This document shows, one piece after another, positions 261-50,624 of a DNA stretch of 64,000 nt. Position 1 is the stretch's first letter; each line of letters begins with the position of its first letter. The stretch is from assembly GCA_003601775.1 (NCBI GenBank), contig PIYN01000014.1:10479-74478 (forward strand). The letters run 5' to 3'. The position numbers and the translations under genes were made by a program. Below the pieces are notes generated by a model, which worked only from the letters and a program-made list of their open reading frames with translations, had not been told where the DNA came from and ran no database searches. Source of the DNA: Candidatus Bathyarchaeota archaeon (lineage in GTDB: Archaea; Thermoproteota; Bathyarchaeia; TCS64; PIYN01).

Positions 261-1250
261 CTACATCACATCCTCGTCGCTCTCTACCCCCCTCTCCGTG
301 ATCCTTATCGGGACCTCCCCCTCGGGGAGGAAGGGGCTGACGGTGAGCCGCGCGATGCGGGTCTCCCCCCTACCCTTGCGGAGGAAGATCCGAGTATGGC
401 TCATATGACCCAGGATATGCCCCCCGACGGGCGCGACCATCTTAGCGAAGAAGACGTCGGGCTGGGCCATCACCTGATTCGTGACGACGGCACAGGCGTT
501 GAAGGCCCTCGCCAGCCGGATGAGCTTATGTAGGTGCTTGTTCAACATCTGCTGCCTCGCGGCCAGCATCTCCCTCCCCAGGTACTCGCTCCTGAAGTGG
601 GAGGTGAGGCTGTCGATGATGATGAGCCTGATGTTGTTCTCCTTGATCACCTCATCTGCATTCTCCAGGAGGATCATCTGGTGGCTGGAGGTATAGGCCT
701 CCGCGTATATGATCCTCTTCAGGGCCTCCTTGGGGTCGAGGCCGAACCTGGGGGCGATCTGCATGATCCTATCCGTCCTGAAGGTATTCTCGGTGTCGAT
801 GTAGAGGGCCCCCCCATCGAGGCCGCCCTTCTCCGGCGGGAGCTGAACAGTTAGGCAGAGCTGCTGGCAGATCTGCGACTTCCCGGTCCCGAACTCCCCG
901 TAGAACTCAGTGATGGACTGGGTCTCGATCCCCCCAGCGAGGAGCTTGTCGAGGGCGCCGCATCCGGTCGTCAGCCTCCGGACGTTGCTCCTCAACTTGA
1001 TGAGCTCATCCCCCCTCACGAAGGTGATCGCCATGGACTTCCTGGCGGCCTCTATGATCTTCGCGGCCGTCGCCTCCCCGATCCCCGCCGCCGTGACCTC
1101 CTGGACGGCGGCCGTCGCGAGGGACTCGACGGTCTTGAAGCCGATCTGCCTGAGCTTTGAGGCTGTGGCAGGGCCTACCCCTGGGAGGTCCTCCAGGGTC
1201 TTGTACTTCGCCCTATAGTAGTCCATACGCTCCGAGGCCATTTTTCTCAC
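261..1250 (-). CDS. radA: DNA repair and recombination protein RadA (archaeal RecA/Rad51 homologue)
   Basis: 329 aa with N-terminal HhH region (LEDLPGVGPATASKL) and Walker A GEFGTGKSQ. Full-length similarity pattern to archaeal RadA, with no intein insertion. Confidence 0.9.
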   Translation of the reverse strand: MRKMASERMDYYRAKYKTLEDLPGVGPATASKLRQIGFKTVESLATAAVQEVTAAGIGEATAAKIIEAARKSMAITFVRGDELIKLRSNVRRLTTGCGALDKLLAGGIETQSITEFYGEFGTGKSQICQQLCLTVQLPPEKGGLDGGALYIDTENTFRTDRIMQIAPRFGLDPKEALKRIIYAEAYTSSHQMILLENADEVIKENNIRLIIIDSLTSHFRSEYLGREMLAARQQMLNKHLHKLIRLARAFNACAVVTNQVMAQPDVFFAKMVAPVGGHILGHMSHTRIFLRKGRGETRIARLTVSPFLPEGEVPIRITERGVESDEDVM

Positions 1251-1270
1251 ACGAAAAGGGGTCTAAACCT

Positions 1271-1290
1271 TCTTTTTAACTTAACTATCT
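1271..1290 (-). promoter_or_regulatory. putative TATA-box/BRE region for radA (TTAAAAAG on minus strand about 25-40 nt upstream of the ATG)
   Basis: AT-rich hexamer in an otherwise GC-rich intergenic spacer upstream of radA start at 1250. Confidence 0.25.
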
Positions 1291-1350
1291 CGAATAGATC
1301 ATCTACTGTTACCCTGAGCCCTTCTCCTCTTCCCCTCCTCTACAGGCGCC

Positions 1351-1572
1351 CTATTCGCCTCTGCGTCCTTCCTCAGAGCCCTTCTCGTCGACCTCGACTA
1401 TAAGGTGCCCCCTGTAGCCACAGTCCTCACAGACGTAGATGGCAGGGAGAAACCCGAGACCCATCCTCTCCATACGAATATGGCTCTTACCGCATCTGGG
1501 ACAGACTTTAAGGCCACCTCTCCCACGCCTTATCTGCCTCAGGGCCTCGAGGAACTCCCTCAATGTCTTCAA
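1351..1572 (-). CDS. small C4 zinc-ribbon protein (CPRCG...CEDCG), function unknown
   Basis: 73 aa ORF with two CxxC pairs, tightly packed between radA and the SUI1 gene. Confidence 0.45.
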   Translation of the reverse strand: MKTLREFLEALRQIRRGRGGLKVCPRCGKSHIRMERMGLGFLPAIYVCEDCGYRGHLIVEVDEKGSEEGRRGE

Positions 1573-1575
1573 GTC

Positions 1576-1884
1576 CTACTGGACCTCTATATTCTCAGCT
1601 GGGAAACCCAGCTCGATGAGGATCTCCCTCACAGCCTCCCTGTGGTCTCCCTGGAGGAGGATCTTCTGGTTCTTCGCGGTCCCACCACATGCACACTTGG
1701 ACTTCAGCTTGGCCGCCAACTTGCTCAGCTTCATCTTCTTAGAATCGATCCCGTCGATGACCGTCATCGTCTTCCCCCACTTCCGCACCTCCAGCCTTAT
1801 ACGAATCCTCTGCTGCTCCTTCTCCATCTCCCCGCAGACACAAAGGTCCTTGGGCAGCCCGCAGACAGGACAGATCTCCGCCAT
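1576..1884 (-). CDS. translation initiation factor aIF1 / SUI1 homologue
   Basis: 102 aa with N-terminal CPVCGLPKDLCVCG zinc knuckle followed by a SUI1 fold region (IRIRLEVRKWGKTMTVIDGI...LQGDHREAVREILIELGF) typical of archaeal SUI1. Confidence 0.85.
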   Translation of the reverse strand: MAEICPVCGLPKDLCVCGEMEKEQQRIRIRLEVRKWGKTMTVIDGIDSKKMKLSKLAAKLKSKCACGGTAKNQKILLQGDHREAVREILIELGFPAENIEVQ

Positions 1885-1939
1885 TATCTGGAGAGGATGT
1901 ACCCATAGGGCTATTTAAGCTTTGACGCTAATTCTCCAG

Positions 1940-2560
1940 TTATGAGGGCTGGAAGTATCTCTGGAGGAGGGAGAAGGCCTCCAGGGCGTCCTTCGCGTCG
2001 AGGATGATGACCGTGTTGGTGAAGCAGGAGATGAACTCGAGGATGTTGATGTTCCTCCCCGCGAGGAGCTGGGTGATGAAGGCGACGAACCCAGGCGTCC
2101 TCTCGACCTCAGGCGGACTCGTCAGGATGAGGGCCACCAGGTTGCTCGTGACCTCGACGTCCTCCCCCAGTGCATCCTCGTCCTTTAGCTCCGTCTGGTC
2201 GACTATGTAGACGTGGCTATCCGTCAGGTGGGCGGTGAAGAGATAGGGGATCTTTAACTCCTCGCGGGAGATGATCACAGCTATCTTATCCTGTAGCCGG
2301 ACCTTCGTCCTCCGCAGCAGGTCTATCACCTTCTCCTCCTGCAGCCCCTTCCTCCGGGCCAGCTCATCCCTGACCCTGAGCACAGCAGCCTTAACGGCCT
2401 CGGGGCTCCCCCTCCCAATCTCCTCGTGCAGCATCCTGGAGAGGGCTGAGTAGTTCACTATGTTCAGCCTCAGCGCGTCGACGAGGAAGGGCCTCTTCTC
2501 CAGGATCTCCTTCACGAGTCGTGCGACCGATTTTGACTTATTTGAAACACTATTGCTCAT
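1940..2560 (-). CDS. putative amino-acid-responsive transcriptional regulator (N-terminal wHTH plus C-terminal ACT-like domain)
   Basis: 206 aa. The N-terminal helix-rich DNA-binding-like region and C-terminal beta-alpha-beta-beta-alpha pattern resemble archaeal ACT-domain regulators of amino acid metabolism. It is divergent from argG. Confidence 0.5.
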   Translation of the reverse strand: MSNSVSNKSKSVARLVKEILEKRPFLVDALRLNIVNYSALSRMLHEEIGRGSPEAVKAAVLRVRDELARRKGLQEEKVIDLLRRTKVRLQDKIAVIISREELKIPYLFTAHLTDSHVYIVDQTELKDEDALGEDVEVTSNLVALILTSPPEVERTPGFVAFITQLLAGRNINILEFISCFTNTVIILDAKDALEAFSLLQRYFQPS

Positions 2561-2576
2561 ATCTGCATTAAATATG

Positions 2577-2594
2577 TCATAAAATATATAAATT
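2577..2594 (+). promoter_or_regulatory. shared arg promoter motif TCATAAAATATATAAATT (copy 1, upstream of argG and of the divergent regulator gene)
   Basis: Identical 18-mer also at 5469..5486 upstream of argF. It contains a TATA-like ATATATAAA core about 45 nt upstream of the argG ATG. Confidence 0.45.
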
Positions 2595-2632
2595 TATTCC
2601 ATGATCCTTCTCTAAGCCTCTGGGAAGAGTGG

Positions 2633-3871
2633 ATGAGAATGGTGAAGAAGGTCGTCTTGGCCTATTCGGGCGGCCTGGACACGTCCGTCATGGTCAAGTG
2701 GATCCAGGAGCACTATGGGAGTGAGGTGGTGACCGTCACCCTCGACGTGGGGCAGGGGAAGGACCTGAAGGCGATCGAGGAGAAGGCCTGGATGCTCGGG
2801 GTCGTGAACCATTACTCCATCGACGCAAGGGAGGAGTTCGTGAACGACTACGTCGTCCCCGCCATCAAGGCGAACGCCCTGTACATGGATGCCTACCCCG
2901 TGAGCAGCTCCCTCTCCAGGCCCCTCATAGCGTCGAAGCTGGTGGAGGTCGCGGAGAAGGAGGGTGCCGACGCGGTGGCCCATGGGTGTACTGGGAAGGG
3001 GAACGACCAGGTGAGGTTTGATATCACGATAAAGTCGCTGAACCCTGACCTCAGGATAATTGCGCCGGTCAGGGAGTGGAATATGACGAGGGATAAGGAG
3101 ATCGAGTGGGCGAAGGAGCACGGCGTCCCCGTCCCAGTCACGGCGGACTCCCCCTACAGTATCGACCAGAACCTATGGGGGCGGTCCATAGAGTGCGGCA
3201 TCATAGAGCACCCCGACGTGGAGCCCCCCGAGGAGGTCTTCGAGTGGACTGCCCCCATAGAGGAGACGCCCGACGAGCCCGAGTACATCACCATAGGCTT
3301 CGAGGAGGGGGCGCCCGCCTCCCTCAACGGGGAGGAGATGACCCCCCTGGAGATCATCGAGGAGGTCCAGGGGATAGCCGGGAAGCATGGAGTCGGGCGC
3401 ATAGACCACATGGAGGATCGGATAGTCGGCCTGAAGTCCCGTGAGGTATATGAGGCCCCGGCCGCCACCGTCATCCTGAAGGCTCATGCCGATTTGGAGA
3501 AGATGGTGCTGACCCGCCACGAGAAGCTCTTCAAGAGGCACGTCGACCACGAGTGGGCCGTGCTGGTCTACACTGGGCTCTGGATGGACCCCCTCAAGGA
3601 GGCCCTCGACGCCTTCATAGAGAAGACCCAGGAGAGGGTGACGGGTGAGGTGACCGTCAAGCTCTTCAAGGGGAACGCCCAGGTGGTGGGGAGGTCCTCC
3701 CCCTCCTCCCTCTACGACCTCAGCCTCGCGACCTACGATATCACCACCACCTTCGATCAGACCGCTGCAATCGGGTTCATCGAGCTCTGGGGGCTGCCGA
3801 CCGTCACTTACTGGGCCCTGAAGAGGAAGCAGGGGCGGGTTCCTCTCCAACAGAGGACGGCGATACCTTAG
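2633..3871 (+). CDS. argG: argininosuccinate synthase
   Basis: PP-loop AYSGGLDTS near the N-terminus and the ArgG signature GCTGKGNDQVRF; about 410 aa. The start is possibly the second ATG at 2639 (MVKKVVLAYSGG). Confidence 0.93.
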   Translation: MRMVKKVVLAYSGGLDTSVMVKWIQEHYGSEVVTVTLDVGQGKDLKAIEEKAWMLGVVNHYSIDAREEFVNDYVVPAIKANALYMDAYPVSSSLSRPLIASKLVEVAEKEGADAVAHGCTGKGNDQVRFDITIKSLNPDLRIIAPVREWNMTRDKEIEWAKEHGVPVPVTADSPYSIDQNLWGRSIECGIIEHPDVEPPEEVFEWTAPIEETPDEPEYITIGFEEGAPASLNGEEMTPLEIIEEVQGIAGKHGVGRIDHMEDRIVGLKSREVYEAPAATVILKAHADLEKMVLTRHEKLFKRHVDHEWAVLVYTGLWMDPLKEALDAFIEKTQERVTGEVTVKLFKGNAQVVGRSSPSSLYDLSLATYDITTTFDQTAAIGFIELWGLPTVTYWALKRKQGRVPLQQRTAIP

Positions 3872-5371
3872 GTCGGGTCCAACGTCGATAGGTAGCCCTC
3901 AACAGCCTTCCTCAGGCGCCTCTTAGCCGCCTCCACGGCGGACCTCTTCCCCTCCAACTCGCCTCTACACGCCTCAAGCCTCTTCCGCCGGTCCCTGAGC
4001 ATCCTCTCCACCTCCTCCGGCCGTGGACCTCCTCGTGACCTCCTCCTCGAGAGGCTGGAGAGGGGGTCGGTCACCTCTCTGAGGAACCCCTCATCCACCT
4101 CGACCCGTCTCCCGAGGACCCTGAACGAGGCCTCCGCCACCTCATCCGGCTTGAGGTCGCGGAGGCTCCCGCCCTCCTCCAGCGTCTTCTTCACGAGGGC
4201 CGCGACGAGCCAAGGGGAGTCCCTTCTCCGCGACGAGGCCCTCCGCGACGTCGAGGGCGATGGCGAGGCTCCCCTCAACTGCCTCTCGCATCCGACCCTC
4301 CCTCACCTTCAGGGTGGAGATGATGCCCGTCATGACCTCGAGGCACGTCTTAACAGTGTCGAGGCACCTCCAGAGGGGGGGCTTCGTACCCTGCAGGTCC
4401 TGATAGTAGCCGCTGGGGACCCCCTTCACCATCGTCAGCAGCTCCATCAGGGCGCCGTAGACCTCCCCCGTCTTCCCTCGGATGAGCTCCAGGGTCGAGG
4501 GGTTCTTCTTCTGGGGCATGATGCTCGAGGAGGAGGAGTACTCGTCGGCGACCTCGACGTAGCCGAACTCCGCCGTGGACCACTCGATGAGGTCTGCGGC
4601 GACGCGGCTCAGATGGGACATGAGGATCGCGGAGACGGAGGCCGTCTCGATGGCCCAGTCCCTCCCACTCGTCGCGTCGATGGAGTTCTCGACGAGGCCG
4701 TCGAAGCCCAAGAGCTCCGTCGTCCTCCCCCTGTCGATGTTGATGCTGGTGCCGCCCACGGGCCCGGACCCGAGGGGGTTCCTGTTGACCCTGCCGTAGC
4801 AGTCCATGAGGCGCTGGAAGTCGCGGAGGAGGGCGTCGGCGTAGGCCATCAGGTAGTGGGCGAAGGTCCCGATCTGTGCATGCTGGCCGTGGGTATAGAG
4901 GATCATCACCGTCTCCCTGTGCCGATCTGCCTTCTCCAGGAGGGCCTCGACGAAGTCCAGGACTCTCTCACCCATCTCCAGGATCTCGTCCCTGACCCTG
5001 AGGCGTACGTCGACCATCACCTGGTCGTTTCGACTGCGTCCCGTGTGGAGCATCCCCCCCGCCTCTATGCCTATCTTCTTGATGACCCGGGCCTCGATGT
5101 ACTCGTGGATGTCCTCGAACTCCGCCCCTATCTCCACCTCACCCCTCCGCCACTCGCCCCGGATCTCCTCCAGCGCGGAGAGGATGAGCTTCAACGCCTC
5201 TAAGGGGATGACGCCCTGCTCGTGGAGCATGATGTCATGGGCCTCCGTCCCATCTATGTCGTCCTCGAAGATCCTGAGGTCCTCGACGACGGAGGTATGG
5301 AACCGGGCGGTCCTATCATCGAACCTCTTATCCAGCCTCGACCTGAACAAGCTGCCCGTCAGGGATACCAC
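3868..5371 (-). pseudogene. argH: argininosuccinate lyase, reading frame split by a frameshift near 4200-4240 (ORFs 4142..5371 and 3868..4278)
   Basis: The upstream ORF carries the fumarate-lyase signature GSSIMPQKKNPS and ends ...LVAEKGLP then reads out of frame. The remaining C-terminus (...LVAALVKKTLEEGGSLRDLKPDEV...) continues in another frame in the overlapping ORF. Confidence 0.8.
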
Positions 5372-5468
5372 CGAACACCTATAATCTTCTTACGACTAAA
5401 AAGCATACGGATCTGCCCATGAAGTCATCTCATATGTGACAGTTTTGAGTGCAATTGCAACATTCATA

Positions 5469-5486
5469 TCATAAAATATATAAATT
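5469..5486 (+). promoter_or_regulatory. shared arg promoter motif TCATAAAATATATAAATT (copy 2, between divergent argH and argF)
   Basis: Exact repeat of 2577..2594, about 55-70 nt upstream of the argF start. Confidence 0.45.
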
Positions 5487-5540
5487 CGTTGTAGGGTTTG
5501 TCCTCTGAAATCCTTGGAGAGAGGTTGAGTAGGTGATGGG

Positions 5541-6476
5541 GTGGACGAGGGGAGGCGAATGGTCAGGCATCTTTTAAGCGACTTCGACCTCAACAGGGAG
5601 GAGATCCTGGAGATCCTGGACCTCGCCGAGGAGATGAAAGGGGACCCGGGTAGATATGGGGATGCGCTCAGGGGGAAGACCCTGGTCATGCTCTTCGAGC
5701 TGCCGTCCCTCAGGACGAGGGTCTCCTTCGAGGCGGCTATGACCCAGATGGGGGGACACGCCATCTTCTACAGCATCGCCGGAGGGAGCTTCACGAGGGG
5801 CGAGACCCTGAGGGACGGCGTGAGGGTCCTGAGCAGGTACGCCGACTGCATCATGGCCCGGGTCTTGAGGCAGGAGGACATCGAGAGGATCGGGGAGGTG
5901 GCCTCCGTCCCCGTCATCAACGGGATGACGATGAAGTACCACCCCTGCCAGAACATCGCTGACCTCCTCACCATCAGGGAGAAGAAGGGGACCTTGAAGG
6001 GTCTGAAGATCGCCTACGTGGGAGACGGCGGGTGCAACACGGCCCACTCCACCATCATCGGCTGCAGCAACGTCGGGATGGACGTGACGGTCGTCTGCCC
6101 GGAGGGGGCGAGGTACAGCCCCGACCCCGAGATCCTGAGGAGGGCGAGGGAGCGGGCGTCGGGGAGGATAGAGGTCTGCCACGACCCCCTCGAGGGCGTG
6201 GAGGGGGCGGACGTCATCTACACGGATACCTGGATCAGCGCGGGAATGGAGGAGGAGAAGGAGGAGCGGATGAGGGTCTTCCCACCCTTCCAAGTCAACT
6301 CGGAGCTGGTGGGGAGGGCGAAGGAGGACTGCATCGTGATGCACTGCCTCCCAGCCCATAGGGGCTACGAGATCACGGACGAGGTGATGGACGCCCCCTA
6401 CTCCGCCGTCCTCGACCAGGCCGGGAACAGGATGCACACAGAGAAGGCGATCATCTACTGGCTCCTGAGGCAGTGA
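5541..6476 (+). CDS. argF: ornithine carbamoyltransferase
   Basis: Carbamoyl-phosphate binding motif SLRTR (within ...LFELPSLRTRVSFEAAMTQMGG) plus HPCQ and HCLP motifs; 311 aa. An alternative ATG at 5559 (MVRHLL) is preceded by GGAGG. Confidence 0.92.
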   Translation: MDEGRRMVRHLLSDFDLNREEILEILDLAEEMKGDPGRYGDALRGKTLVMLFELPSLRTRVSFEAAMTQMGGHAIFYSIAGGSFTRGETLRDGVRVLSRYADCIMARVLRQEDIERIGEVASVPVINGMTMKYHPCQNIADLLTIREKKGTLKGLKIAYVGDGGCNTAHSTIIGCSNVGMDVTVVCPEGARYSPDPEILRRARERASGRIEVCHDPLEGVEGADVIYTDTWISAGMEEEKEERMRVFPPFQVNSELVGRAKEDCIVMHCLPAHRGYEITDEVMDAPYSAVLDQAGNRMHTEKAIIYWLLRQ

Positions 6477-6558
6477 GGGAGTTCCATGGCGATCCAGGCG
6501 TTGGAGGCAGCCAGGGATGGGGTCCAGAGGGCTTCCCCCAGAGGAGGGGGAAAGGCCC

Positions 6559-7689
6559 ATGAAGCCTGTCTATAGGGCCGCCCTGGCGCTTGAGGACGGC
6601 TCGGTCTTTTTAGGATCCGGTTTCGGCTACCCCTGCGAGGTCTCAGGGGAGGTCGTCTTCAACACCGGGATGGTCGGCTACCCCGAGTCCCTGACCGATC
6701 CATCCTACTCCGGGCAGATCCTCGTCCAGACCTATCCCCTCATAGGGAACTACGGGGTCCCCTCCAGGGACATCGTGGACGGTTTCGGCCTGCCTCTGCA
6801 CTTCGAGTCCGATAGGATCCAGGTCAGGGGATACGTCGTCCACTCCCTCTCCCGGCATCCGAGCCACTGGTCCTCGAAGCGCCCCCTCAGCGAATGGCTC
6901 TACGAGGAGAGGATCCCCGGCCTCTCCGGGATAGATACAAGGAGATTGACGAAGAAGCTGAGGGTGAAGGGGACGATGCTCGGCGTCCTCAAGGTCGCCG
7001 AGGAGATCGACTTGGACGAGCTGGTCGGAAAGGTCAAGGAGGTCGAGGACCCGAATGAGGGGGACCTCGTCGCGGGCGTCACCGTCGAGGAGCCCGTCTT
7101 CCACGGGGCCGAGAGGTCCCCGAGGGTCGTCGTGATAGACTGTGGGGTGAAGTACGGGATACTGAGGGAGCTCCTGGCGAGGGGGGTGGGGGTGGTGAGG
7201 GTCCCCTACGACTACCCGCTCGACGGGATACTGGACCTCGACCCCTCAGGCATCGTGATCTCCAACGGCCCCGGGGATCCGAAGAGATGCGTCGAGACGA
7301 TAAGGACGGTGGAGGGGCTCCTTGAGACAGGCCTTCCCGTGATGGGGATCTGCCTTGGCAACCAGCTCCTCGCCCTCGCCGCCGGGGCCGATACCTATAA
7401 GCTCAAGTTCGGACATAGGGGGCAGAACCACCCCTGCCTCGACCTGTCCAGCGGCAGGTGCTACATCACGAGCCAGAACCACGGCTTCGCCGTTGACGCC
7501 GAGAGCCTGAGGGGGACGGGCTTCGAGGTCTCCTTCATCAACGCCAACGACAGGAGCGTCGAGGGGATCAGGCACGGGGAGAAGCCCGTCTTCGCGTCCC
7601 AGTTCCACCCAGAGGGGTCGCCTGGGCCCTACGACACGACCTTCCTCTTCGACGATTTCCTGAGGGAGGTGAGGGGATGCCGAGGTTAG
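6559..7689 (+). CDS. carA: carbamoyl-phosphate synthase small (glutamine amidotransferase) subunit
   Basis: CarA N-terminal domain (MKPVYRAALALEDGSVFLGSGFG) and class-I GATase catalytic motif GICLGNQLL. The ATG at 6559 is preceded by GGAGG. The ORF track extends it to 6517. Confidence 0.9.
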   Translation: MKPVYRAALALEDGSVFLGSGFGYPCEVSGEVVFNTGMVGYPESLTDPSYSGQILVQTYPLIGNYGVPSRDIVDGFGLPLHFESDRIQVRGYVVHSLSRHPSHWSSKRPLSEWLYEERIPGLSGIDTRRLTKKLRVKGTMLGVLKVAEEIDLDELVGKVKEVEDPNEGDLVAGVTVEEPVFHGAERSPRVVVIDCGVKYGILRELLARGVGVVRVPYDYPLDGILDLDPSGIVISNGPGDPKRCVETIRTVEGLLETGLPVMGICLGNQLLALAAGADTYKLKFGHRGQNHPCLDLSSGRCYITSQNHGFAVDAESLRGTGFEVSFINANDRSVEGIRHGEKPVFASQFHPEGSPGPYDTTFLFDDFLREVRGCRG

Positions 7690-10600
7690 AGTGGGTCAGG
7701 AAGGTCCTGATCCTGGGGAGCGGGGCGATAAAGATCGGGGAGGCGGGAGAGTTCGACTACTCGGGGGCTCAGGCCATTAAGGCCCTGAAGGAGGAGGGGA
7801 TCGAGGTCGTCCTCGTGAACCCAAATATCGCGACGATCCAGACGGATGAGAGGTTCGTCGACAGAGTCTACTTCGTCCCCATCACCCCCGAGTTCGTCGA
7901 GGACGTCATAAGGGAGGAGCGCCCCGACGGCATCCTCCTGGGCTTCGGGGGGCAGACGGCCCTCAACTGCGGGGTGGAGCTCGACGAGAGGGGCGTCCTG
8001 GAGAGGTACGGCGTGGAGGTCCTCGGGACGGGGATCGAGTCCATAAGGATCGCCGACGACCGCGACCGCTTCAGGGAGACGATGCTGAAGAATGGGGTGC
8101 CCATCCCCAGGAGTGGAAAGGCGACGAGCGTGGAGGAAGCCGTCGAGGTCGCCGAGCGGATCGGGTACCCCGTGATGGTGAGGGTCTCCTACACCCTCGG
8201 GGGGAGAGGGACGGGAGTCGCTGAGGATGAGAGGGACCTGAGGTACCTCGCCTGGAGGGGCCTCGCCCAGAGCAGGATAGGGCAGATCCTCGTCGAGGAG
8301 TATCTGGGGAAGTGGAAGGAGGTCGAGTACGAGGTGATGAGGGACTCCGCAGACAACTGCACCATCGTCTGCAACATGGAGAACTTAGACCCCATGGGCA
8401 TCCACACAGGGGAGAGCATCGTCGTCGCCCCCTCCCAGACCCTGACGAACAGGGAGTACCACCTCCTCCGTTCGACGAGTTTCAAGGTCGTGAGGGCCCT
8501 CGGCATCGTGGGGGAGTGCAACATCCAGTTCGCCCTCGACCCCGACGGCGAGGAGTTCAAGGTCATAGAGGTGAACTCCCGCCTCTCCAGGAGCTCCGCC
8601 CTCGCCTCCAAGGCGACGGGCTATCCCATCGCCTATATCGCCGCGAAGCTCGCCATAGGCTACACCCTCCCGGAGCTCATGAACAAGGTCACGGGGGTCA
8701 CGACGGCCTGCTTCGAGCCGGCCCTCGACTACGTCGTCGTCAAGATCCCGAGGTGGGACTTCCAGAAGTTCAGGCGGGTGGACCGGGAGATCGGGACGCA
8801 GATGAAGTCCGTGGGGGAGGTCATGGCCATCGGGAGGAACTTCAAGGAGGCGATCCAGAAGGCCGTCAGGATGCTCAACATCGGACGGGAGCTGACGGAT
8901 GAGGGGGAGGAAGAGAGCGAGGCCAAGATCCTCTACATGCTCAAGCACCCGACGGACGAGCGCCTCTTCTACATCATCAAGGCCCTGAGAAGGGGGATGA
9001 CCCCTGAGGAGATCCACAGACTGACGGGGATCGACCCCTGGTTCCTCCACGAGCTCAAGGAGATAGTGGAGCTCCACGAGTCTCTGAAGAGGAGCCCCCT
9101 GACGCCGGGGCTCCTCAGGAGAGCTAAGCAGCTGGGCTTCTCTGACAGGAAGATCGGGGAGCTGACGGGGAGGAGTGAGGGGGAGGTGCGCGAGATGAGG
9201 CGGTCCCTCGGCATCACCCCCGTGGTGAAGCAGATCGACACGCTGGCCGCCGAGTGGCCAGCCGTGACCAACTACCTCTACATGACCTATAACGGCGACG
9301 AGGACGACATAGACTTCAGGCCGGAGAGGAAGGTCATCGTCCTCGGCTCCGGCTGCTACAGGATCGGCTCGAGCGTCGAGTTCGACTGGTGCTGCGTGAA
9401 CATGGCCTGGGCCCTGAAGGAGCGGGGGGTCGAGGAGGTGATCATGGTGAACTACAACCCTGAGACCGTCTCGACGGACTACGACGTCCTGGACAAGCTC
9501 TACTTCGAGGAGCTGACCCTGGAGAGGGTGTTGGATATCGTGGAGAAGGAGAGGCCCCTGGGCGTCGTCGTCAGTGTCGGGGGGCAGATCCCCAACAACC
9601 TGGCCCTCGGCCTTGCGAGGAACGGCGTGAGGATCCTCGGAACCTCGGCGGAGGACATCGACAGGGCAGAGGACCGGTCAAAGTTCAGCAGGCTCCTGGA
9701 CGACCTCGGGATCGAGCAGCCCCCTTGGAGCAGGCTGGAGGACCTAGAGAGCGCTAAAGCCTTCGCCCGGGAGATCGGCTACCCCGTCCTGATAAGGCCC
9801 TCCTACGTCCTCTCAGGCTCCGCGATGAGGGTCGTCTTCGACGAGGAGCACCTGGAGGAGGCGCTGAGGGAGGCGGCGAGGGTCTCGAAGGAGTACCCCG
9901 TCGTCGTCTCAAAGTTCATCTTAGGGGCCAGGGAGGTGGAGGTCGACGCCGTCTCCGATGGGGAGCACGTCTTCATCGGCGCGATCATCGAGCATGTGGA
10001 GAACGCCGGCGTCCACTCTGGCGACGCGACGATGTCCATACCCCCGCTCTCACTCCCCGAGGAGGTAAAGGAGGAGATCCGGCGCTGCACCAGGAGGATC
10101 GCGAGGAGCCTGAGGATCAGGGGCCCCTTCAACATCCAGTACCTCGTGAAGGATGGGCGGATCTACGTCATAGAGTGTAACCTCAGGGCCTCGAGGAGCA
10201 TGCCCTTCGTCTCCAAGACCGTGGGCGTCAACCTCATGGAGGTGGCCGCCGACGCCATCCTCGGCCGGGGGGTCGTGGATGGGGAGGGGGAGCCCAGGAG
10301 GTGGGGCGTCAAGACCCCCCAGTTCTCCTTCATGAGGCTCGAGGGGGCGGACCCCGTGACGGGGGTGGAGATGGTCTCTACGGGGGAGGTCGCCTGCTTC
10401 GGGGAGGACTTCGAGGAGGCCTTCCTGAAGTCCCTCATCGCCTCCGGCATAAAGATCCCCGAGGAGGGAGACCCCATCCTCATCACCGTCGGGGGGGAGA
10501 AGGACAGGATCATCCCCCTGGCGAGGAGGCTCGCCGAGGCCGGGTTCAGGCTCTACGCGACGGAGCACACGGGGGAGGCCCTCCGGCGGGAGGGGGTGCC

Positions 10601-10883
10601 CTGCGAGGTCCTGAGGAAGGTGAGTGAGCCCGGGGACCCGAACATACTGGATTACCTCATGGAGGGCAAGATCAAGATGGTCATAAACATCCACGGCCTG
10701 AACGACGGACCCCTCTCGAGGCAGATACTGGAGGACGAGTACCTCATCAGGAGGAGGGCCGTGGAGTTCGGGGTCCCCGTCATCACAAACCTGGAGCTGG
10801 CCGACGCCCTCACGAGGATTCTCGTTAGTCGGAGGGGGAAGAGGTTAATAAAAGAGGTGGGGCATACTTCTCCCCGTCGATAG
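7677..10883 (+). CDS. carB: carbamoyl-phosphate synthase large subunit
   Basis: 1068 aa with duplicated ATP-grasp halves (KVLILGSGAIKIGEAGEFDYSG ... KVIVLGSGCYRIGSSVEFDW) and a C-terminal MGS-like domain; overlaps the carA stop. Confidence 0.95.
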   Translation: MPRLEWVRKVLILGSGAIKIGEAGEFDYSGAQAIKALKEEGIEVVLVNPNIATIQTDERFVDRVYFVPITPEFVEDVIREERPDGILLGFGGQTALNCGVELDERGVLERYGVEVLGTGIESIRIADDRDRFRETMLKNGVPIPRSGKATSVEEAVEVAERIGYPVMVRVSYTLGGRGTGVAEDERDLRYLAWRGLAQSRIGQILVEEYLGKWKEVEYEVMRDSADNCTIVCNMENLDPMGIHTGESIVVAPSQTLTNREYHLLRSTSFKVVRALGIVGECNIQFALDPDGEEFKVIEVNSRLSRSSALASKATGYPIAYIAAKLAIGYTLPELMNKVTGVTTACFEPALDYVVVKIPRWDFQKFRRVDREIGTQMKSVGEVMAIGRNFKEAIQKAVRMLNIGRELTDEGEEESEAKILYMLKHPTDERLFYIIKALRRGMTPEEIHRLTGIDPWFLHELKEIVELHESLKRSPLTPGLLRRAKQLGFSDRKIGELTGRSEGEVREMRRSLGITPVVKQIDTLAAEWPAVTNYLYMTYNGDEDDIDFRPERKVIVLGSGCYRIGSSVEFDWCCVNMAWALKERGVEEVIMVNYNPETVSTDYDVLDKLYFEELTLERVLDIVEKERPLGVVVSVGGQIPNNLALGLARNGVRILGTSAEDIDRAEDRSKFSRLLDDLGIEQPPWSRLEDLESAKAFAREIGYPVLIRPSYVLSGSAMRVVFDEEHLEEALREAARVSKEYPVVVSKFILGAREVEVDAVSDGEHVFIGAIIEHVENAGVHSGDATMSIPPLSLPEEVKEEIRRCTRRIARSLRIRGPFNIQYLVKDGRIYVIECNLRASRSMPFVSKTVGVNLMEVAADAILGRGVVDGEGEPRRWGVKTPQFSFMRLEGADPVTGVEMVSTGEVACFGEDFEEAFLKSLIASGIKIPEEGDPILITVGGEKDRIIPLARRLAEAGFRLYATEHTGEALRREGVPCEVLRKVSEPGDPNILDYLMEGKIKMVINIHGLNDGPLSRQILEDEYLIRRRAVEFGVPVITNLELADALTRILVSRRGKRLIKEVGHTSPRR

Positions 10884-10898: not shown

Positions 10899-11210
10899 AT
10901 GTCTCAGGTAAGGGAACTCCTCGAGATAGTGGAGAGGTCGATGCCCTTCCCCCCGAGGGTCATCGCCGGCTATAGCAGGCTCAGCCAGGTCTTCACGAGC
11001 GGGGACCTGGCCCGGGTCTGCGGGATCCCCCCCTCCACGGCGAAGTTCTACGTGAGGAAGATGGTCGCCCTCAGGATGGTGACGAAGATACCCAACAGGA
11101 AGAAGTACCAGAAGTACGCCAACGCCAAAGAGTTCTCCAGCTGGCTCAAGGACCTCATAAGGCTCGTCATCGTCCCCCTGGAGCGGGGGGAGATCGAAGT
11201 CCCGGAGTAG
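10899..11210 (+). CDS. small winged-helix (HTH) protein, putative transcriptional regulator
   Basis: 103 aa; predicted HTH SGDLARVCGIPPSTAKFYVRKMVALRMV; 15 nt after carB and upstream of the hjc/lon pair. Confidence 0.4.
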   Translation: MSQVRELLEIVERSMPFPPRVIAGYSRLSQVFTSGDLARVCGIPPSTAKFYVRKMVALRMVTKIPNRKKYQKYANAKEFSSWLKDLIRLVIVPLERGEIEVPE

Positions 11211-11290: not shown

Positions 11291-11752
11291 ATGTCGCTGA
11301 GGGATCTGGCCCGCGGGGGGAAGGGAGGCGGGAGGCCCTATAGGAGGTTCCTGACCGCGAAGGAGGTGAGGAGGATGAGGAAGAGGGGCTACGACGCCGA
11401 GCGTGAGATCGTGGGGAGGCTCCGCGAGGCCGGGTTCATGGCCGTGAGGATCCCCGTCAGCGCCCCGAGCAACGAGCCCCTCCCCGACGTCTTCGCCGTG
11501 AAGGGCGACAGGATCCTGGCGATAGAGGTCAAGAGCCAAGGGAGGTACGCCTACTTCAAGAAGAAGCAGGTGGAGAAACTCTTCCAATTCCTGGAGATCC
11601 ACAGGATCTACAGCAAGAGGATGGCCGTCCTCGCTGCCAAGTTCAAGTGGGCGGGCTGGTCCCTCATCATCGCCGATGAGCCCCGGGACTACTCCATAAA
11701 GCGGGGTGAGGGGCTGAGCTTCGAGGAGTTCCTGAGGAAGTGTCTCGAGTAA
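11291..11752 (+). CDS. hjc: Holliday junction resolvase Hjc (archaeal PD-(D/E)xK nuclease)
   Basis: Core KRGYDAEREIVGRLREAGFMAVRIPVS...PDVFAVKGDRILAIEVKS carries the Hjc catalytic D...E-x-K arrangement. There is a 28-aa basic N-terminal extension if the start at 11291 is used; an alternative start is ATG 11375. Confidence 0.8.
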   Translation: MSLRDLARGGKGGGRPYRRFLTAKEVRRMRKRGYDAEREIVGRLREAGFMAVRIPVSAPSNEPLPDVFAVKGDRILAIEVKSQGRYAYFKKKQVEKLFQFLEIHRIYSKRMAVLAAKFKWAGWSLIIADEPRDYSIKRGEGLSFEEFLRKCLE

Positions 11753-11779
11753 CCCCTCTGCTGGGGGAGATAATCTTTA

Positions 11780-14194
11780 TTGTGGGGGAAGGGGAGTAAT
11801 TCTTTGAATGAGATGGTCGAGGAGTTATCCTACCAGCAGGTGCGGAGGTTCTGCTCCTTCGACTTCGGCTGTGAGACGACGGAGGAGGTCCCGTCTCTCA
11901 AGGGGATCATCGGCCAAGAGCGGGCGGTGAAGGCCCTCCTCTTCGGCCTCAACATCAAGGAGAGGGGCTTCAACATCTACGTCTCGGGCTACCCAGGGAC
12001 GGGGAGGAGGACGGCCTGCCTGAGGTTCCTGGAGGAGATCGCCAGGGACAAGCCCACCCCCTCCGACTGGTGCTATGTATACAACTTCGACGACCCCCAC
12101 CACCCGAAGGCCCTGGAGCTCCCCCCTGGGAAGGGGAGGGAGTTCAGGGAGGATATGAGGGCCTTCATAGAGAACGTGGGGAGGGCCCTCTCAAAGGCCT
12201 TTGAGAGCGAGGAGTACGGGAAGAGGAGGGCCTCCATCCTTGAGGAGGTGAACAGGGAGCGGGCGGAGCTCTCCCGGAAGCTCTCCCTGACGGCGAAGCA
12301 GCAGGGCTTCCTCCTCCAAAGGACACAGATCGGGGTTCTCCTCGTCCCGGTCATGGAGGGGCGGCCACTCAAGGAGGAGGAGTTCGCGAGGCTCCCCGAG
12401 GAGGTGAAGAGGGAGATACAGAAGAGGAGGCGCTACCTGGAGGAGGAGCTGAGGACGACGATGAGGGCCTTCAGGGAGCTGGAGAAGAAGGCCGACGCCA
12501 GGATCCAAGAGCTGAACCGGGAGGTCGCCCTCTACGCCATGGAGCAGTTGATGAATGGGATGATGGAGAAGTACGGCGACATCGAGAGGGTGAAGGAGTA
12601 CCTCGAGGAGGTCCGGGAGGACATCGTCAAGAACCTCAGCCTCTTCCTCGGGAAGCAGGAGGAGAAGCCGACCCCCTTCCCCTTCTCCCAGATGGCCCCT
12701 CCGCCCATGAGGAGATATGAGGTTAACCTCATCGTCGACAACTCCAAGACGAAGGGCGCACCGGTGATCATGGAGCTCAACCCGACGTATCCGAACCTCT
12801 CTGGGAGCATAGAGAAAGAGGCGCGCTTCGGGGCCCTCGTCACGGACTTCACCATGATCAGGGGTGGGGCCCTTCACAGGGCGAACGGCGGCTACCTCGT
12901 GATGTATGCTGAGGACCTCCTCGCAAACCCCCTCTCCTGGGAGACGCTGAAGAGGGCTCTCATGAACGAGCAGATAACCATAGAGGACGTCACGGCGAGG
13001 CTGGGGCTGATCGCGACGAGGTCCCTGAGGCCTGAGCCCATACCCTTCACCGGGAAGGTCGTCCTCATAGGGAACCCAGCCCTCTACTACTTGCTCTACC
13101 AGTTCGACAGGGACTTCAAGGAGCTCTTCAAGGTGAAGGCGGACTTCGACGTGACCATGGACCGGAACGAGAAGAACCTCAGGGACTACGCCTCCTTCGT
13201 CTGCACCCTCTGCAGGAAGGAGGGGCTGAAGCATCTGGACGCCGAGGCGTTGAGGGAGGTCGTCGAGTACAGCTCCCGGCTGGCGGAGGACCAGATGAAG
13301 CTCTCCACCCGCTTTGCCGAGATCTCCGACATCATCAGGGAGGCCTCCTTCTACGCCGAGCAGGAGGGGGCGGATTACGTCTCGAGGAGGCATGTGAAGA
13401 GGGCCCTGGAGGAGAAGGTCTACAGGTCGAACCTGATCCAGGAGAAGATCAACGAGATGATCGCCCGTGGGCAGCTCTTCATAGACACGGACGGGGAGAA
13501 GGTGGGGCAGGTGAACGGCCTCGCCGTCATCAGCCTCGGGGACTTCGAGTTCGGGAAGCCCTCCAGGATCACGGCGACCGTGGCCGTGGGGAAGGAGGGG
13601 GTGATAGACATCGAGCGCGAGTCGGAGCTGGGGGGGAGGATCCACACGAAGGGGGTCCTCATCCTCAGCGGCTACCTCTCGGGGAGGTACGCCCAGAACG
13701 CCCCCCTCAGCCTCTCGGCGAGGCTCGTCTTCGAGCAGAGCTACACAGGCGTCGAGGGTGACAGCGCCTCCAGCGCCGAGCTCTACGCCCTCCTCTCCGC
13801 CCTCTCGGGGCTCCCCCTCAAGCAGTACATAGCCGTCACGGGCTCGGTGAACCAGAAGGGGGAGGTCCAGCCCATCGGGGGCGTCAACTCTAAGATCGAG
13901 GGCTTCTTCGAGGTCTGCAAGAAGAAGGGCCTGACGGGGAAGCAGGGGATCATGATCCCCTACAGCAACGTCCAGAACCTCATGCTGAAGGACGAGGTGG
14001 TGGAGGCCATAAGGGAGGGGAAGTTCCACATCTACCCCGTGAAGACCATAGACGAGGGGATCGAGATCCTCACGGGCGTGAAGGCCGGAGAGAGGAGGCC
14101 TGACGGGACCTACGAGGAGGGGACTGTGAACGACCTGGTCCAGAAGAGGCTCCTGAAGATGGCCGAGAGGCTCAAGGAGTACACCACACCCTAA
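11780..14194 (+). CDS. Lon-like protease (LonC/COG1067-type): AAA-like domain with degenerate Walker A, long coiled-coil insert, C-terminal Lon S16 protease domain
   Basis: 804 aa; the P-loop position reads GYPGTGRRT (Lys replaced by Arg). The Lon protease domain has catalytic Ser in GDSASSAE and Lys in IGGVNSKIEG. There is no transmembrane insertion, unlike archaeal LonB. Confidence 0.85.
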   Translation: MWGKGSNSLNEMVEELSYQQVRRFCSFDFGCETTEEVPSLKGIIGQERAVKALLFGLNIKERGFNIYVSGYPGTGRRTACLRFLEEIARDKPTPSDWCYVYNFDDPHHPKALELPPGKGREFREDMRAFIENVGRALSKAFESEEYGKRRASILEEVNRERAELSRKLSLTAKQQGFLLQRTQIGVLLVPVMEGRPLKEEEFARLPEEVKREIQKRRRYLEEELRTTMRAFRELEKKADARIQELNREVALYAMEQLMNGMMEKYGDIERVKEYLEEVREDIVKNLSLFLGKQEEKPTPFPFSQMAPPPMRRYEVNLIVDNSKTKGAPVIMELNPTYPNLSGSIEKEARFGALVTDFTMIRGGALHRANGGYLVMYAEDLLANPLSWETLKRALMNEQITIEDVTARLGLIATRSLRPEPIPFTGKVVLIGNPALYYLLYQFDRDFKELFKVKADFDVTMDRNEKNLRDYASFVCTLCRKEGLKHLDAEALREVVEYSSRLAEDQMKLSTRFAEISDIIREASFYAEQEGADYVSRRHVKRALEEKVYRSNLIQEKINEMIARGQLFIDTDGEKVGQVNGLAVISLGDFEFGKPSRITATVAVGKEGVIDIERESELGGRIHTKGVLILSGYLSGRYAQNAPLSLSARLVFEQSYTGVEGDSASSAELYALLSALSGLPLKQYIAVTGSVNQKGEVQPIGGVNSKIEGFFEVCKKKGLTGKQGIMIPYSNVQNLMLKDEVVEAIREGKFHIYPVKTIDEGIEILTGVKAGERRPDGTYEEGTVNDLVQKRLLKMAERLKEYTTP

Positions 14195-15130
<936 letters not shown>

Positions 15131-49093: not shown

Positions 49094-49837
49094 ATGGATG
49101 AGCATAGATCTCTTAAGGAACTCATAGCCAGGAGGATCGCCGGGGAGATCGTCCTCTCCCCCAACCCCGGCCTCGCAATGAGGAAGTGGAGGACCCTCTT
49201 CGGGGTAACTCAGGTACAGATGGCCTCTGAGATGGGGCGCTCCCCCTCCGTGATCAGCGACTACGAGGCCGGGAGACGACGGTCTCCCGGCGCCGCCTTC
49301 ATCAGGAGGTTCGTGGAGGCCCTCATCGAGATCGATGAGAGGACGGGAGGCCACTACATCCAGAACCTCGCCAGGATGACCCTCGCCCCCAGCGACGCCT
49401 TCATCGATATCCGGGAGTTCACCATACCCGTGAAGGTGCGTGAGATCTGCGAGGCCGTAGAGGCGGATGTCCTCGTCGGTGAGGAAGAGATGGACCTCGA
49501 CATCTTCGGCTACACCATCATAGACAGCCTCAAGGCCATCCAGACCCTCTCAGGCCTCGACTTCTACAGGCTCTTCGGCTCCACCAGTGAGAGAGCCCTC
49601 ATCTTCACAGGGGTGACGAGGGGAAGATCACCGATGATCGCCATAAAGATCAGCCCCTTCAAGCCACGCCTCGTCGTGCTCCACGGCAAGATCGAGAAAG
49701 TAGACGACCTCGCCGTGATGCTCGCCAGACACGAGAACGTCCCCTTAGCCCTCTCGAAGAAGCCCTCGGTAGAGGAACTGGTGGACGCCCTTGATCGACT
49801 ATACAAGAGGGCACTATCTCAAACTGCAAAAAAATGA
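49094..49837 (+). CDS. archaeal XRE-type HTH transcriptional regulator with conserved C-terminal domain
   Basis: 247 aa; HTH_3-like segment LFGVTQVQMASEMGRSPSVISDYEAG followed by an about 170-aa domain. Confidence 0.6.
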   Translation: MDEHRSLKELIARRIAGEIVLSPNPGLAMRKWRTLFGVTQVQMASEMGRSPSVISDYEAGRRRSPGAAFIRRFVEALIEIDERTGGHYIQNLARMTLAPSDAFIDIREFTIPVKVREICEAVEADVLVGEEEMDLDIFGYTIIDSLKAIQTLSGLDFYRLFGSTSERALIFTGVTRGRSPMIAIKISPFKPRLVVLHGKIEKVDDLAVMLARHENVPLALSKKPSVEELVDALDRLYKRALSQTAKK

Positions 49838-50158
49838 ACCTCTCCTCATCTTATCCTTCCCTTTCTCATACCTGAACGGAGATCCTAAAAGGGTGACTGA
49901 GGGGATCAAGGAAGGTAATAAATCAAATCTAGAGATGGTCTGTAGAAGAACCATCAAATGAGGGATAGACCCCCTAAAGTCATGAGGCGCTCTGTCACCC
50001 TTAAACGATAGGTCAAGGATTTTATTTTAATTGAATATTTGAAATTTGAGAAGAATTCAACGATATAAGTCGAACTAAGAATTTAAATGGTTAAATTTAT
50101 ATATCAAACACCCTCCTTAAGTTAGGATTGATAGGTTAAATAAAATAGGTGGATCTGG

Positions 50159-50335
50159 ATGGGAGAGGAAGAGAAGGAGGACTATACAGTCCCTGTGTAC
50201 ATCGGCCTGAAACACTCAATCGTCGTCGAGTTGGACAATATCGCCGCCGAGTGGGGAACTACAGTGAGCAGGGCTTGTCAGAGGATCATAACAGAGTACG
50301 TGAAGAACTGGGTTAGCGAAAAGGAGAAGAAATAG
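50159..50335 (+). CDS. ribbon-helix-helix (CopG/Arc-like) small DNA-binding protein candidate (58 aa)
   Basis: Sub-threshold ORF in the AT-rich spacer: MGEEEKEDYTVPVYIGLKHSIVVELDNIAAEWGTTVSRACQRIITEYVKNWVSEKEKK, showing a beta-strand then two helices characteristic of RHH proteins. Confidence 0.4.
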   Translation: MGEEEKEDYTVPVYIGLKHSIVVELDNIAAEWGTTVSRACQRIITEYVKNWVSEKEKK

Positions 50336-50341
50336 CATCAC

Positions 50342-50551
50342 TCATCGAGGATCATCCCTTTTTGCCGTTGTTCCAAATCGAAGTTTATAATACATCACAA
50401 GGATGAAGACGCCCACAAAAGAGAGAATTAAAGTGTATAATGCGACCATTGCGGGGCCGACTTCTTCAATCAATCTTCCCAAAAAATGGGCCGCGAAGGT
50501 GATAAGTACCATCAAAAGAGTTGCGATTATCATCTGTTTACGCGTTAACAT
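50342..50551 (-). CDS. small membrane protein (2 predicted TM helices, 69 aa)
   Basis: Hydrophobic segments IIATLLMVLITFAAHFL and ALYTLILSFVGVFILVMYY; AT-rich codon usage. Confidence 0.35.
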   Translation of the reverse strand: MLTRKQMIIATLLMVLITFAAHFLGRLIEEVGPAMVALYTLILSFVGVFILVMYYKLRFGTTAKRDDPR

Positions 50552-50624
50552 AGGGTCCCTTTGTTAGTGGACTTAACGGCCATATATTAAAATATTGATG
50601 AAATATATTGTTTCTTGACGGGGA

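Follow-up and report, generated by a model that had tools for sequence, protein, structure and literature searches.

The closest known relatives of the protein described here are LonC of Meiothermus taiwanensis (MtaLonC; PDB 4FW9, 4FWD and 8K8V) and TTC1975 of Thermus thermophilus (MEROPS S16.007). These proteins show no ATPase activity, degrade unfolded substrates independently of ATP and act as holdases. Cryo-EM and crystal structures of MtaLonC contain phosphate and no nucleotide in the P-loops, from which their authors concluded that nucleotide recognition has been lost, and the MtaLonC structural paper describes a helical-hairpin extension (HHE) bearing a hook. Two insertions are specific to LonC: CX3GLX(G/E) after the helix of the catalytic Lys and phi-X2-A-phi in helix alpha5 (Liao et al. 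2012). MEROPS is reported to list only eight LonC members. The literature that we surveyed held no characterised Arg-type or archaeal LonC, and a search for work on Lon in Bathyarchaeia returned nothing useful.

Here we analyzed a Lon-like gene in a 64-kb stretch of Bathyarchaeota DNA (the window). With a probability of about 0.85, we consider its product a soluble, full-length Lon protease of the LonC subfamily with a dead ATPase module that acts on unfolded proteins without ATP, as MtaLonC does; it is an ordinary member of a described family.

The lonC gene and its product

The mechanical open reading frame, which the sequence-only reading had adopted, spans 11780 to 14194 on the forward strand and encodes 804 aa from the first in-frame TTG. 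The likely start is instead the ATG at 11813 (793 aa; Table 1), which we favour because the N-termini of homologues align from the point “MVxELS” and because the 99%-identical protein in NCBI record RJS89422.1 is 793 aa long. All residue numbers follow this start. In GC content, the gene matches the surrounding DNA.

Table 1 Features of the lonC locus (positions in the window).
Feature	Position	Strand	Details
103-aa ORF, possibly HTH	10899..11210	+	15 nt after carB; weak HTH matches (E about 0.009) that miss the Pfam cutoffs
hjc, Holliday junction resolvase, 153 aa	11291..11752	+	Pfam Hjc, E 4.6e-20; directly upstream of lonC
AT-rich TATA-like box ATAATCTTTATT	11770..11781	+	In the 60-nt hjc-lonC spacer
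lonC	11813..14194	+	793 aa + stop; Pfam domains, MtaLonC match, homologue N-termini
Degenerate Walker A / P-loop GYPGTGRRT	11987..12013	+	Residues 59-67
LonC_helical (PF20437)	12065..12166	+	Pfam, E 1.1e-19, 70.5 bits vs cutoff 24
Helical-hairpin extension (HHE), predicted	12131..12646	+	Predicted secondary structure, between Walker A and Walker B
Hydrophobic beta-hairpin at HHE tip, predicted (GFLLQRTQIGVLLVPVMEGRP)	12305..12367	+	Predicted strands 166-171 and 174-181
AAA_32 (LonB-like AAA alpha/beta)	12752..13150	+	Pfam
Walker B-like GGYLVMYAEDL	12887-12919	+	Residues 359-369, within AAA_32
AAA+ lid (LonB_AAA-LID)	13232..13426	+	Pfam, E 2.9e-26
Lon S16 protease domain	13475..14071	+	Pfam Lon_C
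Catalytic Ser651 in GDSASSAE	13757-13780	+	Lon S16 protease domain
Catalytic Lys694 in GGVNSKIEG	13877-13903	+	Lon S16 protease domain
LonC insertion 1, CKKKGLTG	13916-13939	+	Residues 702-709
LonC insertion 2, VVEAI	13997-14011	+	Residues 729-733
Thioredoxin-reductase-like gene	14207..15130	+	12 nt downstream of lonC; TTG start, GGAGG 7 nt upstream

The product carries four Pfam domains (LonC_helical, AAA_32, LonB_AAA-LID and Lon_C), and its best PDB match by phmmer was MtaLonC, with an E-value of 1.1e-93 over residues 37-769. Neither residue of the Ser651-Lys694 dyad varied in any of 151 sequences (the window protein and 150 cluster representatives), and the catalytic Ser is preceded by the Asp typical of LonB and LonC (GDSAS). 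The two LonC-specific insertions were likewise present and well conserved across the same sequences: in insertion 1, the Cys was found in 148, the two Gly in 138 and 140 and the Leu in 136, while the Ala of insertion 2 was found in 140. No transmembrane segment was detected in the protein, its highest Kyte-Doolittle mean over 19 residues being 1.23 against the usual threshold of 1.6.

The site occupied by the membrane anchor in LonB is taken here by the HHE, predicted (pLDDT about 73-90) as a pair of long helices, at residues 107-163 and 196-254, joined by a beta-hairpin (residues 166-181) that is conserved in the alignment of homologues. By analogy with the MtaLonC structures, this hairpin is likely a substrate-binding “hook”. 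Full-length MtaLonC cryo-EM chains (8k8v and 8k91) were the top Foldseek matches to the predicted model (1e-33), followed by LonB (5e-18), although identity in the MtaLonC alignments was a modest 24–27%. The AlphaFold2 model, built from a 22-sequence alignment (mean pLDDT 62.6, pTM 0.46, residues 539-656 and with them the first half of the protease domain unresolved), was used solely for the HHE region and this coarse ranking; because it is poor overall, structural support leans mainly on sequence homology.

These results agree with most of what the sequence-only reading had proposed for the protein itself, i.e., a protease of LonC rather than membrane-LonB type with an intact S16 domain, a degenerate Walker B, no membrane anchor and a long coiled-coil insert, the last corresponding to residues about 107-278 with their two predicted very long helices and beta-hairpin. 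The comparison of LonB and LonC profiles that it had suggested gave the same answer, the LonC_helical match lying well above its cutoff and the LonB match far below (see below). No second Lon was found within the window.

P-loop and Walker B states across the LonC family

In the P-loop, Arg65 stands at the position of the canonical Lys, and Arg66 at that of the Ser or Thr; the phmmer alignment places R65 opposite the P-loop Lys of MtaLonC (GPPSLGKHE). The Walker B-like motif, aligned with GGYLILDALSL of MtaLonC, has Tyr in place of the Asp and Ala in place of the Glu.

The P-loop Arg had been singled out beforehand as an oddity. The substitution is real, but Arg was found in 112 of the 120 closest homologues, in 51 of the 81 sequences of a set comprising the window protein and 80 species representatives, and in 78 of the 151 sequences with cluster representatives, 68 of which have Lys. 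By these counts, Arg is the majority state in the clade and the state of about half of LonC representatives, and thus not peculiar; nearly all archaeal LonCs sampled have a fixed Arg-type P-loop, G-x-P-G-T-G-R-x-T. At least 146 of the 148 sequences ungapped there (151 in all) retain the scaffold G-x-x-G-x-G-[RK], and G59, G62, T63, G64 and T67 are invariant in the alignment of homologues. At the Walker B Glu position, 116 of 151 sequences have Ala. Whether the P-loop has Lys or Arg showed no clear relation to which residue replaces or retains the Walker B Asp.

The family itself is large. At least 594 LonC loci were confirmed in species-representative genomes, and the best-scoring 150 cluster representatives (50% identity) are all near-full-length relatives, which makes LonC a very large family across many archaeal and bacterial phyla. 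Its Lys and Arg forms are about equally common, and the studied MtaLonC is of the Lys form. Public entries for this protein and others related to it carry the names “ATP-dependent protease”, “AAA family ATPase” or “ATP-binding protein”; judging from the motifs, these names are likely mis-annotations, as the ATPase motifs are gone.

Genomic context and competing readings

Genes for arginine and pyrimidine biosynthesis, RadA, enolase, thioredoxin reductase (trxR) and GMP synthase lie around lonC in the window. The catalytic E/D/E-x-K residues of Hjc are readable in its sequence. An internal start for Hjc at ATG 11375, after the GGAGGTGA motif, was considered and rejected, the basic N-terminal extension (MSLRDL...) being conserved as protein sequence in seven of seven syntenic loci. 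The spacers upstream of hjc (80 nt from the 103-aa ORF) and of lonC (60 nt) each hold an AT-rich TATA-like box, while the tight junctions are those between carB and the ORF (15 nt) and between lonC and trxR (12 nt, with GGAGG). An equivalent hjc-lonC spacer with a box of the TTTAAAT, TTTTTAT or TTTATT type recurs in all seven syntenic loci, in genomes of about 62% GC. The box in the window is thus a putative separate promoter, from which lonC would probably be transcribed, and lonC and the downstream trxR are probably co-transcribed in this genome.

Across 86 LonC loci, hjc adjoins lonC in only seven, all from Bathyarchaeia and forming contiguous leaves of one LonC sub-clade in a neighbour-joining (NJ) tree. 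Two of the seven have identical LonCs, and LonC identity among them goes down to about 61%. They share housekeeping flanks (argF/carB, trxR, enolase, HpcH, RadA and SUI1); the small HTH gene is present in six and absent from L081, the closest distinct relative (80% identical). A thioredoxin-reductase gene follows lonC in 10 of the 86 loci, again all Bathyarchaeia, and seven other Bathyarchaeia loci have a small ORF of nuclease fold (DUF559) 0.7–1.9 kb downstream. When ORFs within 3 kb of lonC were clustered over the 86 loci, no family-wide partner emerged: all clusters were lineage-specific and the largest covered at most 11 loci. Overall, lonC stands alone, and lineage-specific synteny accounts for its having hjc and the small HTH gene nearby. 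The sequence-only reading was right to place hjc directly upstream, while the tight wHTH-hjc-lon unit that it described is overstated, given the two spacers and their boxes; its small wHTH protein exists as an ORF with weak HTH matches, and the linkage, whose conservation in relatives it had proposed to check, is confined to one sub-clade.

Two other readings of the protein and its setting fare poorly against these data. A merely divergent ATP-dependent membrane Lon of LonB type could be suspected, since the AAA alpha/beta domain, the lid and the Asp before the active-site Ser are shared with archaeal LonB (Thermococcus onnurineus LonB, TonLonB; PDB 3K1J), and the LonB equivalog TIGR00764 is the top NCBIfam match. 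That match, however, reaches 171.3 bits, far short of the 516.6 cutoff, and covers only residues 316-763, and TonLonB reached an E-value of 5.4e-37 in the same phmmer search, 57 orders of magnitude behind MtaLonC. Furthermore, LonB has two membrane-spanning helices in its AAA domain, canonical Walker A and B motifs (GxxGxGK[ST] and hhhhDE) and ATPase activity, whereas here the HHE sits at the anchor site, membrane helices are missing, the Walker A Lys and Thr and the Walker B Asp and Glu are all replaced (Arg-Arg and Tyr-Ala) and both LonC-specific insertions are present; together these refute a LonB identity, to which we give almost no credence. It is also very improbable that LonC, Hjc and the small HTH protein form a nuclease–protease module acting in DNA-repair control or in a BrxL-like defence, e.g., with LonC degrading Hjc or a regulator. 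The persistence of the hjc neighbour down to about 61% LonC identity and the DUF559 ORFs elsewhere in Bathyarchaeia would fit such a module, but the wider housekeeping context is syntenic in the seven loci as well, which points to common descent instead of selection to keep the two genes together. Against the module also speak the confinement of the pair to a single sub-clade, the absence of the HTH gene from L081, the separate TATA-like boxes of hjc and lonC and the lack of any neighbour kept across the family. As for BrxL, PADLOC families gave no match to LonC, Hjc or the HTH ORF, no BREX or defence genes lie nearby and the architecture differs; what is shared is a distant Lon-protease-like C-terminal fold (marginal Foldseek E-value of 0.03 over 102 columns), so that the defence analogy drawn earlier is not supported and the protein is not a BrxL member. 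The hjc neighbour is hence no pointer to a new nuclease–protease system, and the biological advance is incremental.

Proposed mechanism and comparison with known Lon systems

By analogy with MtaLonC and Thermus TTC1975, LonC would assemble as a ring, a hexamer and perhaps also a heptamer, with a chamber walled by the C-terminal protease domains and their Ser651-Lys694 dyads; the HHEs would form a basket over the pore, their hydrophobic beta-hairpins catching unfolded polypeptides. ATP hydrolysis by the AAA-like module should not be possible, because Arg-Arg replaces Lys-Ser/Thr in Walker A and Tyr-Ala replaces Asp-Glu in Walker B; LonC would then degrade, or merely hold, proteins that are unfolded or only loosely structured to begin with, with no unfolding driven by ATP. 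The strongly conserved P-loop scaffold with its basic residue has probably kept the ability to bind phosphate or some other anion, and probably helps the ring to assemble, as in MtaLonC.

Alternatively, the Arg-type P-loop might still bind a nucleotide or another phosphorylated ligand without hydrolyzing it, and this binding might decide whether the ring is open, a hexameric protease or a heptameric holdase, making LonC ligand-regulated rather than constitutive. We regard this as possible but rather unlikely. The extended scaffold G-x-x-G-x-G-[RK]-x-[TS] is among the best conserved motifs outside the protease domain, and this conservation could reflect a retained nucleotide-dependent step instead of simple phosphate binding; MtaLonC binds ATPgammaS 1:1 by ITC, and its closed hexamers, with phosphate in the P-loops, are driven by ATPgammaS, inhibitor or substrate. 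In addition, Lys and Arg states swap repeatedly on the NJ tree, which would follow if a positive charge alone sufficed. On the other hand, phosphate is all that the MtaLonC P-loops hold, consistent with the loss of nucleotide recognition that its authors deduced, the site following the basic residue is occupied by many different amino acids (T, K, R, H, M, L or E) and conservation is also lacking at the Walker B Asp. A bolder version, in which the Arg-type P-loop is a sensor of phosphate or a phospho-ligand that gates ring closure and the protease/holdase switch, with lonC-trxR perhaps a small stress operon here, is more doubtful still; if true, it would make LonC a metabolite- or stress-regulated proteostasis device. 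The constitutive, ATP-independent LonC protease thus remains our preferred reading.

Among archaeal proteins, Lon-like-Ms of Methanobrevibacter smithii (Msm_1754) is, like the window protein, soluble, and occurs there as a second Lon-like protein beside LonB. It was rejected as an archaeal precedent: its Walker A and B motifs are canonical, it is ATPase-active and has Tyr at the Ser position, and it groups with Bacillus and Clostridium proteins in a different family. MtaLonC, in contrast, shares with the window protein the complete domain order (N-terminal region, P-loop, LonC_helical/HHE, AAA_32, lid and S16 protease), the Asp-Ser...Lys active site, both LonC-specific insertions and the absence of transmembrane segments and of a Walker B Glu. 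The two differ in the P-loop, with Arg-Arg here and Lys-His in MtaLonC, in the Walker B Asp, present in MtaLonC (GYLILDA) and Tyr here, in length, the window protein exceeding the 732-residue PDB chains of MtaLonC by about 60 residues, and in host, which is here an archaeon.

Family assignment and distribution of the window protein

The Lon-type protease gene studied here (lonC) encodes a full-length LonC. Among all PDB sequences, the top match was Meiothermus taiwanensis LonC (MtaLonC; “TTC1975 peptidase”, 4FWD and related entries; E = 1.1e-93), in one alignment spanning residues 37–769, while the Thermococcus onnurineus membrane LonB (3K1J) matched residues 317–765 only (E = 5.4e-37). Pfam recovered the full LonC architecture, i.e., LonC_helical (PF20437, 70.5 bits), AAA_32 (182 bits), LonB_AAA-LID (91.7 bits), and Lon_C, and the best NCBIfam match, the LonB equivalog TIGR00764, remained below its cutoff (171 vs 516.6 bits). 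LonC proteins are defined by a LonB-like active site, two protease-domain insertions (CX3GLX(G/E) and phi-X2-A-phi), and the lack of both transmembrane segments and canonical AAA+ motifs (Liao et al. 2012). As far as sequence can tell, all these features are found here: the catalytic Ser is preceded by Asp, as in LonB and LonC, the insertions read CKKKGLTG (residues 702–709) and VVEAI (729–733) and are conserved across 80 species representatives and 150 cluster representatives, and no membrane anchor is predicted since no 19-residue Kyte-Doolittle mean exceeds 1.23. Database scores, insertions, and absent transmembrane segments thus agree with the sequence-only reading of a soluble LonC-type protease rather than a membrane LonB, and the open reading frame and motifs it quoted were all found (GYPGTGRRT, a degenerate Walker B GGYLVMYAEDL, GDSASSAE, and GGVNSKIEG). 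Databases label this protein and its relatives as ATP-dependent or ATP-binding. No second Lon was found within the 64-kb window.

The true start is most likely ATG 11813, giving 793 aa, because “MVxELS” is the residue 1 alignment point for 21 homologues and RJS89422.1 (NCBI; Candidatus Bathyarchaeota archaeon MAG, 83-kb contig), 99% identical, also has 793 aa.

The LonC family is large and widespread: with one genome per GTDB species, at least 594 relatives were confirmed. The best 80 of these (47–62% identity) came from many bacterial phyla and, among archaea, from Bathyarchaeia, Methanomicrobiales, Methanomassiliicoccales, Methanofastidiosum, Methanomethylicia, and Promethearchaeota. LonCs assigned to Candidatus Acidoferrum sp. 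(L001, 4.4-kb contig, 61% identity) and Actinomycetota (L015, 3.9-kb contig, 54%) fell beside or among Bathyarchaeia on a neighbor-joining (NJ) tree; these are probably mis-binned archaeal contigs, not transfers.

Features of the window
Feature	Position	Strand	Description
Arginine/carbamoyl-phosphate cluster and RadA	261-10883		Order partly common to syntenic relatives
Small ORF	10899-11210	+	103 aa, possible HTH
hjc	11291-11752	+	Holliday junction resolvase
Hjc N-terminal extension	11291-11374		~28 residues, basic (MSLRDLARGGKGGGRPYRRFLTAKEVRR...)
TATA-like box	11770-11781		ATAATCTTTATT, hjc-lonC spacer
lonC ORF	11780-14194	+	804 aa counted from first in-frame TTG
Walker B region	12887-12919		GGYLVMYAEDL, includes Asp368
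lonC-trxR gap	14195-14209		lonC stop to TTG start
HTH_31/HTH_3 protein	49094-49837		Adjoins Peptidase_M48 gene
Low-GC stretch	50001-52000		GC 0.47 vs ~0.62 elsewhere
Peptidase_M48 (HtpX-like) protein	50625-52082	+	485 aa, in low-GC stretch

P-loop arginine across the family

R65-R66-T67 align opposite K-H-E of the MtaLonC GPPSLGKHE, so that both the Walker A Lys and the Mg-coordinating Ser/Thr are substituted. In Walker B, Tyr and Ala stand in place of Asp and Glu. The P-loop arginine had been singled out as an oddity, a view the wider family contradicts: it occurs in 112 of the 120 closest homologues (60–99% identity; 7 Lys, one other as a regex artefact), in 51 of 81 sequences when 80 GTDB species representatives are taken with the window (27 Lys, 2 Leu, 1 gap), and in 78 of 151 when the window is added to the best 150 cluster representatives at 50% identity (68 Lys, 2 other, 3 gaps). 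It is therefore no peculiarity of this protein. Lys and Arg interchange many times on the NJ tree, with archaeal clades nearly all Arg, and this state showed no clear pattern with what occupies the Walker B Asp position. Of the 148 ungapped sequences in the cluster-representative alignment, at least 146 have the G-x-x-G-x-G-[RK] scaffold; the residue after it is unconstrained (T, K, R, H, M, L, or E), and Ala occupies the Walker B Glu position in 116/151. We read this as a family in which ATP hydrolysis would be dead throughout, yet a positively charged, presumably phosphate-binding P-loop is maintained, which fits the phosphate observed in MtaLonC P-loops. Separately, an Asp is common (95/151) at the fourth residue past the hydrophobic Walker B strand (Asp368 here); the position just before it is Glu in 26/151 only, the canonical Walker B Asp/Glu being lost.

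Gene neighborhood and the hjc adjacency

Upstream of lonC lie RadA, a DUF7523/ACT protein, argininosuccinate synthase, a Lyase_1 protein, ornithine/aspartate carbamoyltransferase, carA, carB, the small ORF, and hjc; a thioredoxin-reductase-like gene (trxR), enolase, HpcH aldolase, and GMP synthase follow. The sequence-only reading took small ORF, hjc, and lonC for a tight unit reminiscent of nuclease pairings in defense islands such as BrxL, here with housekeeping genes as neighbors. Among the best 80 of at least 594 relatives, however, Hjc and the small ORF precede lonC at one locus only (L003, Bathyarchaeia). Contigs of four close metagenomic homologues (80, 73, 67, and 64% identity) gave five further loci, all with hjc immediately upstream and trxR downstream; argF or carB upstream is common to them, several also carry RadA/SUI1 upstream or enolase/HpcH downstream, and the whole region is syntenic. 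Overall, hjc adjoins lonC in 7/86 loci (two of which, L084 and L085, have identical LonCs), all contiguous leaves of a single NJ sub-clade; trxR lies ≤3 kb downstream in 10/86, and no family-wide partner emerged, the largest neighbor cluster covering ≤11 of 86 loci. PADLOC matched none of the three products (LonC, Hjc, and the small ORF), and in a Foldseek search the C-terminal domain of BrxL reached only E = 0.03. We conclude that the hjc adjacency is gene order inherited within one Bathyarchaeia lineage, not a nuclease–protease module.

The small ORF, 15 nt downstream of carB, is kept at 57–75% identity in five related loci and is missing from L081, a relative at 80% identity, in which hjc comes right after carB (L081:5388-5466); its HTH Pfam matches are sub-threshold and it has no NCBIfam family. 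The hjc-lonC spacers (60–90 nt) each hold an AT-rich TATA-like box, which argues against a tight hjc-lonC unit and suggests a separate putative lonC promoter. In the window, a short gap and a GGAGG 7 nt ahead of the trxR TTG start suggest lonC-trxR co-transcription; the window shares a gap of 12–14 nt with L081 and L082, and that of L083–L085 is 36–72 nt and T-rich, so that tight coupling is restricted to the closest relatives.

The Hjc extension precedes the region matched by Hjc models and is translated, since its initial MSLRDL shows protein-level conservation across the seven syntenic loci (the window, L003, and L081–L085). In another Bathyarchaeia group (L006, L007, L012, L017, L018, L026, and L073), a second small nuclease-fold gene lies close to lonC, 0.7–1.9 kb downstream: a DUF559 ORF (116–119 aa; Vsr-like endonuclease fold; Pfam E = 3.4e-8; e.g., L018:11145-11504), directly preceding a trxR homologue in L018 and L012. 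This is probably lineage synteny. The GC of lonC (~0.62) equals that of its surroundings; the low-GC stretch may be a foreign insertion, and no Rfam match was found within 48–56 kb.

Predicted structure and mode of action

The AlphaFold2 model was poor overall (mean pLDDT 62.6) and confident for residues ~100–280, where two very long helices (107–163 and 196–254), in line with the coiled-coil-type insert proposed earlier, are bridged by a beta-hairpin (166–181). This predicted element corresponds to the helical-hairpin extension (HHE) with “beta-hairpin hooks” known from MtaLonC, and its conserved hydrophobic hairpin reads GFLLQRTQIGVLLVPVM. Foldseek ranked full-length MtaLonC cryo-EM chains first (1e-33) and LonB second (5e-18) for this poor model.

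MtaLonC and TTC1975 are without ATPase activity and processively degrade unfolded substrates without ATP. The MtaLonC HHEs form a basket whose inward hydrophobic hooks recognize substrates and give holdase activity, with closed hexamers as the protease form and heat-induced heptamers as the chaperone form. Given the retained dyad, HHE with hydrophobic hairpin, and P-loop scaffold, the window protein would act in the same mode (probability about 0.85). The main variant, regulation of assembly by a P-loop ligand, is compatible with this mode of action and less likely. No characterized Arg-type or archaeal LonC was found in the LonC literature examined.
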